DNA of 64,000 nt from a virus: UHGV virus genome UHGV-0072281; one strand, written 5' to 3'. This document shows positions 26,434 to 51,911 of the stretch, in pieces; the first letter of the stretch is position 1, and each line of letters opens with the position of its first letter. The notes under the pieces are model-generated. The model had not been told where the DNA came from and ran no database searches. It was given only the letters and a program-made list of their open reading frames with translations. A program made the position numbers and the translations under genes.

Positions 26434-27705
26434 ATGGCAAATTTCGCAAAAACTCGCGCCGCTCGTGAATCGATGGAAGCGGCCGATGAAGTAATCGACG
26501 GTATCAGCAACGTTGAACCGGCAGAAGAGAACCTGGACGTCCAGCTTGCAGACGTAGCCTCTATCGACGGTCAGCTCGAACAGCTGGAAACCGACGGTGA
26601 AACCCTGGCTGCCGATACTGAGCGTACTGAAGACGCTATCGATCAGGCGGAAGAAGCCGTTGCTAACGGTGAAGAAATGCCGGAAGAAGCGGTTGCCCTG
26701 CAAGAAGTGGCTCAGGAATCCATCTCACGTCGTTGGAACCTGGAACGCACCAAACTGGCTCGCGAATCCTATCGCCGTGGCCGTGGCATGACTGCTGCTG
26801 CGCAGGAAGGCTGGAAAGAAACCCTGAAAGGTCTTTACGAGCGTTTCATTCAGTTCTGTAAAGAAGTGATTGCGAAGATCAAAGACCTGAAACTGAAATA
26901 TTTCAACGTCGGTAAGACCGCACAGAAACGTGCGAAGAAATATCAGGAAATGCTGCGCAAGCTGGGCAAACAGAAAAATGATACCATCTCCGGTGGCTTC
27001 ATTACTAAGCTGTCCATTGAAGGTAAATTCGATGCAGCTGGTTCTATCGCTATCGCGAAAGAAGTAACCTCTGGTAAAGCTAAAGGTGCTATTAGCGCAC
27101 TGGAAAAACAAGCTGGTGAAGCTGTTACTGCTGTAACCAAAGGTGACGATGAAGCATTCAAAGCAATGCGTGGCGATCAGCCGGTAGAACTGTTCGGTAA
27201 AGCAGCGTCTAAACTGCATAACCTGCCGAACTTTGAAAACGGCGATGCGTCTAAACTGCTGGCTCTGCCGGGTAACGCATACGTTCAGTCCGGTACTAAA
27301 GAACTGGCTGGCGGTCACAAATTTACCGCTGTTGCATTCATGAGCACTGGCGATGCCTCTGACGATAAAGACGTGAAAACTCCGTCTGTTTCTGAAATGG
27401 CTGGCGCTGCTTCTTCTCTGGAATCTATCGGTAAAGGCTTCGAAGCTGTACTGAAAGACTTCCGTGCTTACGATGCAGAGATTGCAAAACTGCAACAGGC
27501 CGCTGAGAAAGCTGCTAACGCGCTGAACAGCGAAAAAGACGAAAGCAAGTGGGATGGCCTGCGTAATGCTCGCCAAGCTGCTGACCAGTCTGTTAAGAAC
27601 TACCAGACCCTGAACCGTGCCGTTAGTTATGTTGCTAACACCGTAATTAGCGGTTTGAACGGTTACCTGGGCGCTGGTATCGGTGCTTACGAAAAATCTA
27701 AGTAA
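26434..27705 (+). CDS. abundant paralogous protein 1, putative processed head/internal protein
   Basis: Very strong codon bias (283-codon stop-free antisense frame). It has an acidic N-terminal region with repeated A-x-E-S motifs and is clearly paralogous to 27786-29048. Confidence 0.85.
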   Translation: MANFAKTRAARESMEAADEVIDGISNVEPAEENLDVQLADVASIDGQLEQLETDGETLAADTERTEDAIDQAEEAVANGEEMPEEAVALQEVAQESISRRWNLERTKLARESYRRGRGMTAAAQEGWKETLKGLYERFIQFCKEVIAKIKDLKLKYFNVGKTAQKRAKKYQEMLRKLGKQKNDTISGGFITKLSIEGKFDAAGSIAIAKEVTSGKAKGAISALEKQAGEAVTAVTKGDDEAFKAMRGDQPVELFGKAASKLHNLPNFENGDASKLLALPGNAYVQSGTKELAGGHKFTAVAFMSTGDASDDKDVKTPSVSEMAGAASSLESIGKGFEAVLKDFRAYDAEIAKLQQAAEKAANALNSEKDESKWDGLRNARQAADQSVKNYQTLNRAVSYVANTVISGLNGYLGAGIGAYEKSK

Positions 27706-41533: not shown

Positions 41534-43819
41534 ATGAAAGATACCCGAATCTCTAATTTAGAGAAACTCGTAGAAGCCGGTACTAGTCTGGCCCAAAACG
41601 TCATCGGCAACAACACCGCCAGCGAAATGTGGAAGACGATTGTTGCAGGCGAGTCCGTACGTAGCAACGCAAAAGTATTTGGCGCTCTGCGTGACGAAGC
41701 ATCACAGCACTATGCCAACGCTTTTGGCGGCAAGAAAATGTCTCATGCTGCGACCGTCGCTTCCGCAATGATTCTGGGCGTAGCTAACCACGGTAAAGAC
41801 CTGCAAGAACGTGTTGCCCAGGAATACGCTAAGCCGGAATTCCACACCAAGTATAACCTGGATATTGGTATCCCTGGTGCGCAAGGTGGTGATTGGGGTC
41901 GTGAGCGTATGGTTGTTGCTCAGGAATACTACAGCAACAAAGACTACGACAAAAACTTGGGCCTGACCTGGACCCTGAACGTACGTGCTCTGGAAACTCA
42001 GTCCAAGTTTGCTGAAACACTGTTCCCGACCATTACCGTTGACACCAACGATGTTGGTATTACCGTACGTACTAAAGTGACTACCGTTTCTCGCGGTATC
42101 ATGAACGCGCTGCTGAGCAAAGACGTCGTTGAAGATCATCGTCGTCCGCTGCACAACGCACTGACTGACCACACCGTTCTCCAGGACGAAGCGATCAACA
42201 TCGTTCCTTACGTAATGGAAACCGGTGAAAACCAGGAATACTTCGTAAGCGAAGATCTGGTTCCGAACGAAAAAGTTCGCCTGGGTCGTGTACCTCCGTA
42301 TCCGACTAACTACCTGAGCTTTGCAAACGACACGCTGAACCTGTTCCAGCTGTCTGCGCATCCGGGTATCGTTCAGGAAGGTTACGATGAAACTGATGAA
42401 ATCGCACCGGGTTGTGCTCTGGGCAGCCTGCTGATTTCTGTACGTAAACCGGCCGAAGAAGCGAAAGCGGGTAAATTCATCAAACTGCACGTTCGTGACA
42501 TGCAGTTCGCAACCTTCCAGCGTCCTGCTGAAGGTGACGGCCGTGAACTGGTTCTGCAATTCCGTCGTACCGCGTTCTCTCTGAATGCGAAAACCACTGA
42601 CTGGAAAGGCGACGCTATTCCGGCACTGCAAGCACTGGGCCAGAACTCCTACACCCTGCGCTACGTTATCACCATCACCATGTCCCTGTTCACCAGCGGC
42701 CAGTTCGGTGGTAAAGTAGACATTTCCGGCCACAAACTGGAAATCGAAGGTCTGTACGATGCAACTGGTAACAAAGTTGATACCAAGTCTGGTACCGGCA
42801 AAGTTATCCTGGATGGCCTGAAACTCGAACTGATGGGCTGGCGCTTCGATGGTACTCGTACCAACGAAAACCGTCGTACCCAGGGTCTGCTGCTTGACCC
42901 AATTTGGGAACAGGAAAACTACAAACTGCAATACGGTTCTCCGATTCTGACCAAGTCTCCGGTTGGTGTTGAATACGACGACACTGAACGTCTGGATGAC
43001 CTGATCTCTGCGGTGAACATCCGTAACGAACAGCTGGCTATTACTCAGACGCTGTCTTACACTGAAGCAGTACGTAACGCAGCCGCTGCGATGATCACTC
43101 CGTGGGACAAACCGGCTATCCGTGGTCTGGGCCGTCACTGGGTTGCTCCGTGGTTCAAAGAGTCTGACTACAAAGTCGATGAAGTTGTTCAGTCTCTGGA
43201 TACCAAAGAAGCGCTGATCAACGCTCGTCAGGGTCTGTTGCAGCGTATCGGTAGCCAGGTAACTCAGGCTATCCAGGATTCTCGTTTCATTCCTGCACTG
43301 CGCCTGCTGACCGCTGATCCGGACATTCTTCCGAAAGTTATTATCGCAACTGACGAACCGACTGCATCCATGCTGCTGCTGGTTCAGGGCGACCAACGTC
43401 TGCTGGGCGACCGTTATGAATACGAAGTCGTTACCACCAACGATGACCGCTGGCGTATCTACAACGCAGCTGACGATTCCTGGACTCGTCGTCTGCAATG
43501 GTTCCTGAAAGTTCCGACTGCGGACGATGGTTCCTACTGCGTACTGAACTGGGGTAACCACTTCTGGTCTCCGATCATGGTTACCAACATCAACATTCAG
43601 CGTAACGGTTCTACTTCTAAAGAACTGGCTGTACAGCCGCGTAACGCGCATATCTGCCACTGCCCGATCACTGGTCTGATTTGGGTTAAAGGCATCACCA
43701 AACTGGTTGAAGAAAAACTGGCTTACAACGTTTCTGTAGAACAGAACGGCCAGAAACAAACCGAAGGTGGTGTAGCAGGTAACCTTGCTGTCGAAGGCAA
43801 AGCTACCGCTGGTAAATAA
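41534..43819 (+). CDS. putative major capsid protein precursor
   Basis: 761-aa ORF with the strongest codon bias in the window (685-codon stop-free antisense frame) and a strong terminator after it. The N-terminal part contains AGE-S and two AQE-Y sites matching the S/A/G-x-E cleavage rule recalled for phiKZ-type prohead proteases. The size is similar to what I recall for phiKZ-type capsid proteins. Confidence 0.55.
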   Translation: MKDTRISNLEKLVEAGTSLAQNVIGNNTASEMWKTIVAGESVRSNAKVFGALRDEASQHYANAFGGKKMSHAATVASAMILGVANHGKDLQERVAQEYAKPEFHTKYNLDIGIPGAQGGDWGRERMVVAQEYYSNKDYDKNLGLTWTLNVRALETQSKFAETLFPTITVDTNDVGITVRTKVTTVSRGIMNALLSKDVVEDHRRPLHNALTDHTVLQDEAINIVPYVMETGENQEYFVSEDLVPNEKVRLGRVPPYPTNYLSFANDTLNLFQLSAHPGIVQEGYDETDEIAPGCALGSLLISVRKPAEEAKAGKFIKLHVRDMQFATFQRPAEGDGRELVLQFRRTAFSLNAKTTDWKGDAIPALQALGQNSYTLRYVITITMSLFTSGQFGGKVDISGHKLEIEGLYDATGNKVDTKSGTGKVILDGLKLELMGWRFDGTRTNENRRTQGLLLDPIWEQENYKLQYGSPILTKSPVGVEYDDTERLDDLISAVNIRNEQLAITQTLSYTEAVRNAAAAMITPWDKPAIRGLGRHWVAPWFKESDYKVDEVVQSLDTKEALINARQGLLQRIGSQVTQAIQDSRFIPALRLLTADPDILPKVIIATDEPTASMLLLVQGDQRLLGDRYEYEVVTTNDDRWRIYNAADDSWTRRLQWFLKVPTADDGSYCVLNWGNHFWSPIMVTNINIQRNGSTSKELAVQPRNAHICHCPITGLIWVKGITKLVEEKLAYNVSVEQNGQKQTEGGVAGNLAVEGKATAGK

Positions 43820-48750: not shown

Positions 48751-48785
48751 AGGAGAGCCGAAGCTCTCCTCCTTTATTTTTATTC
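48751..48785 (+). terminator. intrinsic terminator
   Basis: aggagagc-cgaa-gctctcct hairpin followed by cctttattttt. Confidence 0.75.
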
Positions 48786-48828
48786 CCCAATTTATTATAG
48801 CCGCCCACTATAGTGAGGGAATGAGGAA

Positions 48829-49134
48829 ATGATTAAATATGTTGTTATTAATGTAAACTACGAACGTAGTCCACGTTTTCGCTTCGAATTACCTGAAACC
48901 AATGCAACCATGGAGTTTAATCGCTACTTTTTAGAGCATTCAAACACCAAAGTCAATCGCGGTAGATACTAGCTTATCTACTATAATGCACGTAATGAGT
49001 TACTGAAAGCCGTCAAGAAATCAGGTCAGCAAGAATTGTTAGCGAAACTGATGGCGTTTGATAACGATCCTTTAGCAATAGGAATTATGTTAGACCTTGT
49101 TATCAATAAAGACGAAATAGCGTGGTCCGAATAA
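48829..49134 (+). pseudogene. 101-codon gene interrupted by a single in-frame TAG at 48970-48972
   Basis: An ATG with GAGGG 9 nt upstream opens 47 codons, then TAG, then 54 further open codons in the same frame ending in TAA. Terminators flank both sides. Neither half is in the ORF track. Confidence 0.5.
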
Positions 49135-49139
49135 AAAAG

Positions 49140-49188
49140 CTACTCCGACCCCAGAAGGGTCGGAGTAGGCTCGAATTATTTTTTTTTT
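49140..49188. terminator. bidirectional intrinsic terminator
   Basis: ctactccgaccc-cagaa-gggtcggagtag hairpin followed by a run of 10 T, between convergent genes. Confidence 0.85.
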
Positions 49189-49193
49189 GCTAT

Positions 49194-51911
49194 TTAGAGA
49201 GTTTCATCGCTGTTGTCATCTGCACCGGTATCCGTCTCGTCCGTGCCTTCAGTTGAAACGTCTTCTTCCGTTGCCGTATCGGTTTCCGTCGTTTCATCGT
49301 CAGTCATGTCCAAGTCTTCATCACCGCCCAGATCGTCACCACCTAAGTCCTCATCGCCTCCTAAGCCGCCGTCATCTTCAGTGCCGCCGCCAAAGTCGCT
49401 GCTACCGCCGAAGTTATTGGCGTCTTCAGGATTCAGATCAGCCGCTTTTGCTAACGTTTCAACTTTCCCTGTTACACGTTTTGCCAACTGAATCAGTGTC
49501 TTAGATGCAGACGCAATTTCGTCAGAGATCATCTTAACGTTTTCACCGCGTTTCTCTTCATCGTAAATCAGGTCGAACATATCGTTCTCAATACCCTGAC
49601 TACGTAACCAGTGGCGCGCGTAGAAGGTCTTAACCATCGTCTTGAGGTCATCAGGTGACATTTCAATACCTTCGTTCTGAAGCATATTAGCAATGTCATC
49701 CGTGACCACCAGATCTGCAAGTTTCTCGATAAATTCATAGCGTTTATCGAAGAGATCAGCTTGAGATGCTGTTGCAGAAGTATCAGGTGGTGGCAAGGTG
49801 ACCTTCATACCGTTGATAAACTTCGCCATATACTCTGACGTTTGTTTTGTCATCTCTTCGCTAGATACATTCGGATTCTGCTCACGGATATACTCAACGA
49901 TAATACGGATGAGTTCTGCTTGCAGTTTCGGTGAAGCTTGCAGACTGTTTGTAACGTAGCGCGTAAGCGGGGTTGAGAGGATTTCCTGTTTCTTCACAAT
50001 CTGTTGAGTAACCAACAGCGATTTAGAATAAATCTGAGAAGCAAACTCCAGGTTCTCCGGGGTAAGTACAAGGTCAGGATCAACACACGCGATGTGACAT
50101 GTACGGCGTAACAGGTTCTCGTCAATTTGTTGATCAGGAACTTTATACTCCGGCGTGGTATCAGACACAGACACTTTGTGGCTGGCGTAGTAATCGTTAC
50201 CCGTTACGTTAAAGGCAATCCCCGCGTTAGCTCCCATTGCCCAAGCATCGTTAATATCCCCCCACATCGGTAAACGACGGTTGTAGGAGTTAAGGATATC
50301 TGATTTGGCTTGGTCGACAGTTTTTTGACCGTTTGCATCGTCCGGTGACAGCTCAATGTCGTACTGCATGTGACGTGCCGAGTTTAGTACAGATGAGTTC
50401 ATTGTCGCAAACAGCAGTGCCATCCTGACGGTGGAGATGATAAAAGAGCGTTCAGTGATAGAAACCCCGATACCATCTTCGTTAAAATCCGTTGCAAAAT
50501 AGCATAGGTTATTAACCGGAATGTAAACCACTTGAGTATGACGTTTTGCGAGATGACGCGCTAACAGAATACGGCCGAATGTTTCGGTAATATTCATGCT
50601 GATTTCTGCGCCACCTAGTGCCTGACTTAATGCGCGAGCAAATTCGTTTTCAGCGATTTCACCGCAACGTGTACTTAAACGGTTGGCGATTTCCGGGGTA
50701 ATGCGAGAAGTGTTCCCTAAGCCCAGATTAGAACGGTTAATGATGCTGTCCGTCATCCCGTCGTTATTCAGGTAGTTCATAAAGTTCGCATCGCCGTACA
50801 GCGAGGAGCGAGCATTGATGAAGTTACCCATGTCATCTACGATGGTCAGATAACCAATAGGGTTACGAACGTCATCGCCAATTACCAGTGGCAGCGTTGA
50901 CTCTGCGGGCAGTAAACGTTCGATGTATTCGATTTTGTTATTCTCATCCATTGAGATAATAGGAATATCACCGTACGTTTGTGTTTTCGGTGTTGACTTA
51001 TACGCCTCGTTTAAATCACCCAAGTTAATGAACCCTTTTTCAGCAGCGTCACGCTGACGGTCATCGAAAGATTGGTTAGGGTCGAACGGACTGCCACCGT
51101 TTGGTGTAGACGGCTTTTCATATGCGGCTTGCTCTAATTGCCCGTACAAACCCGTACGTGCGTTCTCATGCGCGATACGACGATACAAATCCGGCAGCAT
51201 GGTAATGCGCGGGTTATCGGTAATCGTGATTTCCATCTGGAATTTATCCGAGAACATCGAATCGTGCTTACCGAAATCGATTTTCAACGTCTGAGGACCA
51301 GTAACGGCTCCGTGTAAACGGTTGAGAATTGATTCCACACCAACTCGCTGCCCTTCTTTCGGCGCATTAATAGGCCCGAGAATACCAAGCTGTTGTTCGA
51401 AGAACGCCGTTTGGGAACGACGAATAGATTCAGTAGCGACCTTTGTATTCAGACCGAATAATTGGTCGAAGCCGGTATCCGAGATTATCATCACTGGACT
51501 TGCGCCTTTGGTTTTTAACGCATCGTAAATCCACTGATATAATTTCTTAGGTAGCTGACGAATGTTATCGTGATAATCACGGGTCGGTGTCAGTAGCGCG
51601 TTACGCAGATCAATGGGGATGTCCGCGAAGTTGTCGTAAATCAACGTCGTGTTGATTAAGTCTTTTGTTGATAACAGGCTCGAAGTTGCAATAGTAACGA
51701 TTGTTTCGAGTTCAGGTAACGCATCAAAGATACGTTCCGCATTTTTGATAGTACGAATACGTGAACTCGCAATTGCCGTGAGTTCTTGACGTGTTGGCGT
51801 AGAACCACCCTCGCTACGCGTACCGCGTTGTTGCTGAGGTGCTGGGCCCGTAGTTTTACGAAGAATTGCAGCTACGGCGGGGTCGCCCGTTAATTTACTA
51901 ATATCGTCCAT
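49194..51911 (-). CDS. large protein (905 aa) with a highly acidic repetitive C-terminal tail; possibly the portal protein
   Basis: Long ORF a few genes from the putative capsid gene, of a size plausible for a jumbo-phage portal. The tail reads GGDEDLGGDDLGGDEDLDMTDDETTETDTATEEDVSTEGTDETDTGADDNSDETL. The portal call is positional only. Confidence 0.75.
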   Translation of the reverse strand: MDDISKLTGDPAVAAILRKTTGPAPQQQRGTRSEGGSTPTRQELTAIASSRIRTIKNAERIFDALPELETIVTIATSSLLSTKDLINTTLIYDNFADIPIDLRNALLTPTRDYHDNIRQLPKKLYQWIYDALKTKGASPVMIISDTGFDQLFGLNTKVATESIRRSQTAFFEQQLGILGPINAPKEGQRVGVESILNRLHGAVTGPQTLKIDFGKHDSMFSDKFQMEITITDNPRITMLPDLYRRIAHENARTGLYGQLEQAAYEKPSTPNGGSPFDPNQSFDDRQRDAAEKGFINLGDLNEAYKSTPKTQTYGDIPIISMDENNKIEYIERLLPAESTLPLVIGDDVRNPIGYLTIVDDMGNFINARSSLYGDANFMNYLNNDGMTDSIINRSNLGLGNTSRITPEIANRLSTRCGEIAENEFARALSQALGGAEISMNITETFGRILLARHLAKRHTQVVYIPVNNLCYFATDFNEDGIGVSITERSFIISTVRMALLFATMNSSVLNSARHMQYDIELSPDDANGQKTVDQAKSDILNSYNRRLPMWGDINDAWAMGANAGIAFNVTGNDYYASHKVSVSDTTPEYKVPDQQIDENLLRRTCHIACVDPDLVLTPENLEFASQIYSKSLLVTQQIVKKQEILSTPLTRYVTNSLQASPKLQAELIRIIVEYIREQNPNVSSEEMTKQTSEYMAKFINGMKVTLPPPDTSATASQADLFDKRYEFIEKLADLVVTDDIANMLQNEGIEMSPDDLKTMVKTFYARHWLRSQGIENDMFDLIYDEEKRGENVKMISDEIASASKTLIQLAKRVTGKVETLAKAADLNPEDANNFGGSSDFGGGTEDDGGLGGDEDLGGDDLGGDEDLDMTDDETTETDTATEEDVSTEGTDETDTGADDNSDETL

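Follow-up and report, generated by a model that had tools for sequence, protein, structure and literature searches.

A probable recent natural nonsense allele of a conserved small gene in a gut jumbo phage related to SPN3US

We analyzed a locus within a 64,000-nucleotide stretch of the virus genome UHGV-0072281, called the window below, where a small gene on the plus strand has a gp79-like gene on one side and the convergent gene for the portal protein on the other. An ATG at 48829-48831, preceded by the SD-like sequences GAGGG (48815-48819) and GAGG (48823-48826), opens 47 sense codons that end in the amber codon TAG at 48970-48972; in the same frame, a further 53 sense codons follow and end in TAA at 49135-49137, giving a gene of 47 + 1 + 53 = 101 codons plus the stop. 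The start, the first 47 codons and the TAG are as described in the original prediction; the frame does stay open to a TAA, as it also said, and its count of 54 codons for that part comes down to 53. Both terminators that it had placed around the gene were recovered by a terminator scan, the upstream hairpin itself covering 48751-48770, with the T-run directly after, and the downstream bidirectional hairpin covering 49140-49168, with T10 after it. The features of the locus are:

48751..48784, plus strand: intrinsic terminator of the gp79-like gene (82 aa), hairpin AGGAGAGC-CGAA-GCTCTCCT followed by a T-rich tail, from the terminator scan
48785..48828, plus strand: intergenic leader with a CCCCAATTTATTATAG motif and the SD-like GAGGG/GAGG, nearly invariant in nine relatives
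48829..48969, plus strand: codons 1-47 of the gp80-like gene, with predicted strand 1, strand 2 and helix 1; matches the family profile alone (E 8.7e-19)
48970..48972, plus strand: amber codon replacing the TGG (Trp48) of the family through a single G-to-A at 48971
48973..49137, plus strand: codons 49-101 and TAA, with predicted strand 3, helices 2 and 3, and strand 4; YYNAR and DPLAIGIM motifs
49140..49189, both strands: bidirectional terminator with a 13-bp stem CTACTCCGACCC...GGGTCGGAGTAG, flanked by T10 (plus side) and T6 (minus side); kept in relatives
49194-51911, minus strand: convergent portal gene, 905 aa, which has the bidirectional terminator in common with the gp80-like gene

The CCCCAATTTATTATAG motif of the leader may be a phage promoter; a sigma-70 promoter scan of the plus strand of this region gave no match. 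The stems of the two terminators were invariant across relatives and their loops variable (alignments A4 and A5). The upstream loop was CGAA, TTCG or CTAG among nine relatives, with an invariant stem and T-run, and the downstream loop CAGAA was present in one relative (L021) as its reverse complement TTCTG, that is, as a loop inversion.

Two open stretches separated by a stop are not unusual as a pattern, as the six frames of the window contain about 90 such pairs, counting those with 40 codons or more on either side, and the case for a single gene therefore rests on homology. The joined product matched the PHROG family phrog_10389 (profile length 101, function unknown) over residues 1-95 of 101 with an E-value of 1.4e-28, and each half did so alone, the C-terminal half with an E-value of 4.8e-20. 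With tblastn, 48 cultured jumbo phage records from Salmonella, Erwinia, Escherichia and Proteus matched in a single piece with 86-100% query coverage, whereas megablast and blastn of the locus against the cultured-phage collection gave no match, the orthologs being found by protein-level search only. The orthologs were single intact ORFs of 98-102 aa in these 48 records, nine of which were fetched and aligned, and in more than 22 database clusters; none of them showed the two separate genes that, according to the original prediction, would speak against one interrupted gene. Eight fetched cultured-phage orthologs were annotated as hypothetical proteins of 100-102 aa. The groups containing the gene include Seoulvirus, Erskinevirus (phiEaH2, Asesino) and Machinavirus (Huxley, ChrisDB), and the identity within the family was 34-54% to the cultured-phage orthologs and 89-99% to uncultured relatives. 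The 22 database relatives of the joined product ranged from 99% down to 51% identity, and for one of them (P0001) residues 1-47 were identical in protein to the product of codons 1-47.

The ortholog in SPN3US is gp80 (SPN3US_0080, AEP83913.1, a hypothetical protein of 100 aa), and gp81 of that phage is the portal (PMC5105663). The order gp78-gp79-gp80 followed by the convergent portal gene was the same in SPN3US, phiEaH2, Asesino, Huxley, ChrisDB, STsAS, JN03 and SNUABM_29, and the position of gp80 was also kept in all uncultured relatives fetched. The gene in the window is like the SPN3US gp80 family in its length (98-102 aa in the family) and in the motifs RFRFELP, GRRW, YYNAR and DPLAIGIM, and unlike it in having TAG in place of the family's TGG or TTC. 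Judged by homology, the two halves are one gene, an ortholog of SPN3US gp80, and the proposal of one gene split by one amber codon is upheld. Sequence searches of the window and of a relative's complete genome found no paralog. We also noted that the NCBI records of the Salmonella phages SPFM1, SPFM8, SPFM9, SPFM12 and SPFM20 (P0042-P0046) hold the gp80 ortholog as "proteins" of 70-110 aa built from blocks of ~20 aa (60 nt) in reversed order, which were absent among the tblastn matches; this looks like a sequence-record artefact of reordered or reversed lines rather than biology.

We then aligned the codons of the orthologs, a check that the original prediction had called for, and found an aromatic codon at the site of the TAG throughout. 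Among the cultured-phage orthologs, this was TGG (Trp) in eight of nine and TTC (Phe) in ChrisDB; nearly all intact relatives examined had TGG, and TTC was found in one Machinavirus subclade. Position 48 was tryptophan in 22 of 22 database relatives and tryptophan or phenylalanine in a diverse 20-member alignment. Exact look-ups of neighbouring proteins gave 14 close relatives, representing 8 distinct intact DNA alleles, and all 14 had TGG. In comparison with these, the sole nucleotide private to the window in codons 1-99 was the G-to-A of codon 48, a change from the ancestral TGG to TAG through a G:C-to-A:T transition at 48971, and over the first 153 nt a contig from another sequencing run (L025, Logan SRR24737384) had its TGG as the only difference. 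The region after the stop differed from the nearest intact alleles by 3-4 synonymous differences and by L90, which is the ancestral state, and contained no frameshift or private nonsynonymous change relative to the 14 close relatives. With the TAG as its only private change, the copy in the window is too young to have decayed. Of the explanations first offered, a recent nonsense mutation is thus borne out, and a decaying gene does not fit the single lesion.

Both halves of the gene are under purifying selection in the relatives, the pooled pairwise pN/pS being 0.19 in the first half (codons 1-47) and 0.14 in the second (codons 49-99); the latter value shows the downstream coding conservation whose lack would have told against a single gene. 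An exact-pattern scan with TRG at the site gave 0 matches in IMG/VR, JGI metagenome contigs and GTDB genomes. We considered a Dcm-type mutation hotspot at 48971 and rejected it, as the sequence there is, by inspection, ACTGGC and not CCWGG. As a separate observation, the gp80-like gene (48829-49137) showed 98% DNA identity to P0001-type genomes (L010-L015), whereas the flanking 20 kb showed only 81-86%, which suggests that a small gp80 cassette may recently have been exchanged by recombination between sublineages.

TAG functions as a stop codon in this genome. The 54 ordinary genes of the window end in TAA (38), TGA (11) and TAG (5), and the five ordinary TAG-ended ORFs listed in the original prediction were all confirmed, with gene ends at 10879, 31577, 56165, 58854 and 62558. 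We compared all ORFs of a complete circular relative, NZ_CP173450.1 (97% identical), with the window, and among the real genes only the gp80-like one carried an in-frame stop or frameshift; the remaining flagged ORFs ran antisense or in another frame inside genes, or were cut by the window edge. The judgment that genome-wide reassignment of TAG is unlikely holds on both counts.

The window was 100% identical over 20 kb to a JGI metagenome contig from human gut (3300045988 Ga0495776_071432). The exact 47-aa product was present on seven public contigs, two from JGI, one from Logan (ERR525924_2110) and four from ENA, the last including k127_31599 of the ERR525924.PRJEB6456 human gut metagenome, NODE_29_length_200848_cov_23.7 and the 226,156-bp scaffold_25 of BAEC15-1_SAMEA2580141. 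All seven were identical over the 264 nt around the amber site, and their lengths and offsets coincided; the exact portal protein was likewise found on seven contigs, whose lengths were distributed in the same way, and on none besides. At least four of the seven are labelled as re-assemblies of run ERR525924 (PRJEB6456, SAMEA2580141), a sample of the Backhed gut cohort. The shared portal, site sequence, lengths and run labels indicate that the seven contigs are re-assemblies of one human-gut sample, and we dismissed the idea of seven independent sightings on the evidence of the record names. As the sightings appear to come from one dataset, neither spread, persistence nor transmission of the amber allele follows from them. 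The truncated product is also deposited in NCBI nr as DAY64696.1, a 47-aa entry named "MAG TPA: hypothetical protein [Caudoviricetes sp.]".

The portal protein encoded in the window was 72-75% identical to those of cultured relatives, and the capsid gene showed 78-82% DNA identity to that of any cultured phage. On these grounds the window is placed in a separate uncultured lineage of SPN3US/phiEaH2-like jumbo phages; megablast and blastn searches of the cultured-phage collection found no member of it. The genome of the phage, assembled from one human-gut metagenome, is about 225 kb long. Complete circular relatives of this phiKZ/SPN3US-like phage, of ~222 kb, are filed as "plasmids" of cultured isolates: NZ_CP173450.1 (221,873 bp; L034, L036-L040) from Escherichia coli 98232, isolated from human urine, and NZ_CP134650.1 (L035) from Enterobacter ludwigii 51A:C, isolated from a gull. 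These showed 97% nucleotide identity to the window over 5.2 kb, and isolate assemblies bearing the names of Shigella flexneri and of several Salmonella serovars also contained proteins of the lineage. Persistence of a supposedly lytic chimallivirus-type phage in pure cultures, through a carrier state or pseudolysogeny, is a candidate explanation for these records. The tRNA-Ile of NZ_CP173450.1 (150822-150896; L039 1421-1497) was read by ARAGORN with the unusual anticodon AAT, and PGAP also called it tRNA-Ile.

An AlphaFold2 model built from a 20-sequence alignment was confident (pLDDT 85, pTM 0.77). The model has strands at residues 2-8 and 15-21, a helix at 25-37, a strand at 48-50, helices at 51-65 and 68-75 and a strand at 84-88, with W48 opening strand 3 and helices 2-3 and strand 4 lying downstream of it. 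Of the seven predicted secondary-structure elements, four are missing from the basic 47-aa fragment (5.8 kDa, pI 9.7), together with 13 of the 28 alignment columns that are invariant or nearly so, among them YYNAR and DPLAIGIM, and the amber allele would be effectively null apart from trace near-cognate readthrough. Reinitiation at the in-frame TTG at 49036 or at the ATGs at 49051 and 49087 was considered and rejected: none has a convincing Shine-Dalgarno sequence and each would give 33 codons or fewer.

Searches for a function gave no usable lead. The gp80-like product had nothing above noise in Pfam and nothing in a PDB sequence profile search; the best Foldseek match of the model in the PDB had an E-value of 0.8, and a fold search of BFVD gave only uncharacterised phage proteins. 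An exhaustive profile search of 1.84 billion representatives recovered the family itself and, besides it, nothing but scrambled-record artefacts and a single spurious repeat protein (P0047). We found no mention of SPN3US gp80 in the literature searched, which included SPN3US papers, and this argues weakly that it is not among the tabulated virion proteins. A literature match to "gp80" turned out to be phiKZ gp80, a subunit of the virion RNA polymerase, which is unrelated to SPN3US gp80.

The readings of the stop other than a plain nonsense allele differ in what they make of the intact frame behind it. Programmed or suppressor-dependent readthrough, as first suggested, would give both a 47-aa and a 101-aa product by way of a host suppressor, a phage tRNA outside the window or a near-cognate context. 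It would fit the downstream frame with all its conserved motifs, the selection on the gene in relatives, and the weak, AU-rich hairpin of 8 bp whose hexaloop contains the TAG (GGUAGAUA-CUAGCU-UAUCUACU), and it would draw on the C at the +4 position, which is not the strongest termination context in E. coli. However, the intact frame is fully explained by recency, the same TAG-C terminates two of the five ordinary TAG-ended genes, and the hairpin is shared by the TGG alleles, the fold of the region being not unusually stable (z -1.1) and matching nothing in Rfam. Further, a stop at position 48 was absent in the 48 phage records, the more than 22 clusters and the 2 complete "plasmid" records. 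The search for a suppressor tRNA, also among the checks proposed at the outset, covered the 64-kb window, out of about 226 kb of the amber genome, and the whole genome of NZ_CP173450.1: ARAGORN found 0 tRNAs in the former and one only, the tRNA-Ile, in the latter, and neither sequence had a tRNA with the CUA anticodon. The likeness to TAG-recoded phages, which carry suppressor tRNAs, and to readthrough genes such as Q-beta A1 is superficial and consists in an in-frame stop with an open and homologous frame behind it. In the window, by contrast, a single TAG interrupts a single gene of 54 or more, five ordinary genes end in TAG, no suppressor tRNA was found and the stop is missing from all relatives. 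Taken together, functional readthrough or suppression seems to us quite unlikely. Still less probable is that the base itself is wrong, with G (TGG) as the true state of the population and the A as a sequencing or assembly artefact or a minority variant. In its favour, all seven amber contigs apparently derive from run ERR525924 / SAMEA2580141 and are hence not independent confirmations. Nevertheless, the same base was called in at least five assemblies (MEGAHIT k119 and k127, SPAdes with k-mer coverage of ~24, Logan and JGI), which rules out an assembler-specific error, site 48971 lies outside any homopolymer or repeat, and the other genes of the 64 kb show no error-like lesion.

Two further readings have next to nothing left to them. 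A pair of independent small genes, 47 aa and about 32 aa long, with their own starts and in the same frame, could be drawn from the TTG-initiated 32-aa ORF at 49036-49134, which has a weak AGG 10 nt upstream. Every ortholog is nevertheless a single ORF of 98-102 aa across the junction, the conservation runs unbroken over it (GRRW-x-IYYNAR), and the predicted fold is one domain whose strand 3 begins exactly at residue 48, leaving this reading a minute probability. The same negligible weight falls to a laboratory conditional-lethal amber mutant, for instance one induced with hydroxylamine like those of the SPN3US amber collection. Hydroxylamine is expected to produce two changes, one of them TGG to TAG, and amber mutants of SPN3US do exist (PMC5105663); the lesion is also that of the classical amber alleles (TGG or CAG to TAG) in the T4 and SPN3US collections, a transition of a Trp codon to UAG with truncation of the product, and such alleles are in principle suppressible by supD/E/F hosts (PMC5105663). 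The window, however, is identical to human-gut metagenome contigs of PRJEB6456, and its lineage is not in the cultured-phage collection, its capsid gene being as distant from those of cultured phages as given above. In contrast to the mutants of the T4 and SPN3US collections, the allele arose naturally in a gut population and without selection in a suppressor host.

The locus thus very probably carries an ordinary nonsense allele, natural and very recent, in which the TGG of a small conserved jumbo-phage gene has become TAG; the allele is seen in a single gut sample. A spontaneous change of the Trp48 codon would have occurred in the single-copy gp80-like accessory gene of an uncultured gut jumbo phage; ribosomes would terminate at codon 48 and release the 47-aa fragment, and codons 49-101 would now go untranslated. 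The stop would have no polar effect on other genes, because the gp80-like gene is directly followed by the bidirectional terminator. The assembly coverage of the amber phage contig was about 24x (SPAdes k-mer coverage, NODE_29_length_200848_cov_23.7), and that the phage reached such coverage suggests that the gene may have been dispensable or only mildly beneficial in that gut.

That a null allele should be the consensus base is mildly surprising given the purifying selection in all relatives, and it leaves room for suppression, for complementation by co-infecting wild type or for positive selection for loss. The last of these would make the knockout adaptive and not neutral: the gp80-like protein would be sensed by a host abortive-infection or defence system in that gut, or be needed to trigger it, and the nonsense allele would have swept as an escape variant through the local phage population. 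We regard this as unlikely; if true, the gp80-like gene would be a candidate defence trigger, and the null consensus of an otherwise constrained gene would be explained.

Under the preferred reading, a recent nonsense allele, the amber codon on its own matters little, single nonsense alleles being routine in metagenome-assembled phage genomes, and the truncated protein has already been deposited as DAY64696.1. Of more consequence to annotators is the warning that an apparently empty 400-bp gap beside the portal gene contains a conserved gene. The SPN3US gp80 family is uncharacterised though conserved across four jumbo-phage lineages, and the natural knockout suggests that it is not strictly required for propagation in vivo and could guide work on gene essentiality in chimallivirus-type phages.

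Elsewhere in the window, the C-terminus of the portal protein (49194-49420, minus strand) is a low-complexity tail of about 70-80 residues rich in Gly, Asp, Glu and Thr. Alignments to the SPN3US and phiEaH2 portals end at residue ~826-839 of 905, and the acidic tail is therefore variable between lineages. We also observed an antisense ORF of 685 aa (41702-43759, minus strand) running almost the full length of the phiKZ-type major capsid gene opposite it (41534-43819), and another of 283 aa opposite 26434-27705 that reaches 368 aa in the E. coli relative. Though strikingly long, these antisense ORFs are probably an effect of codon bias.
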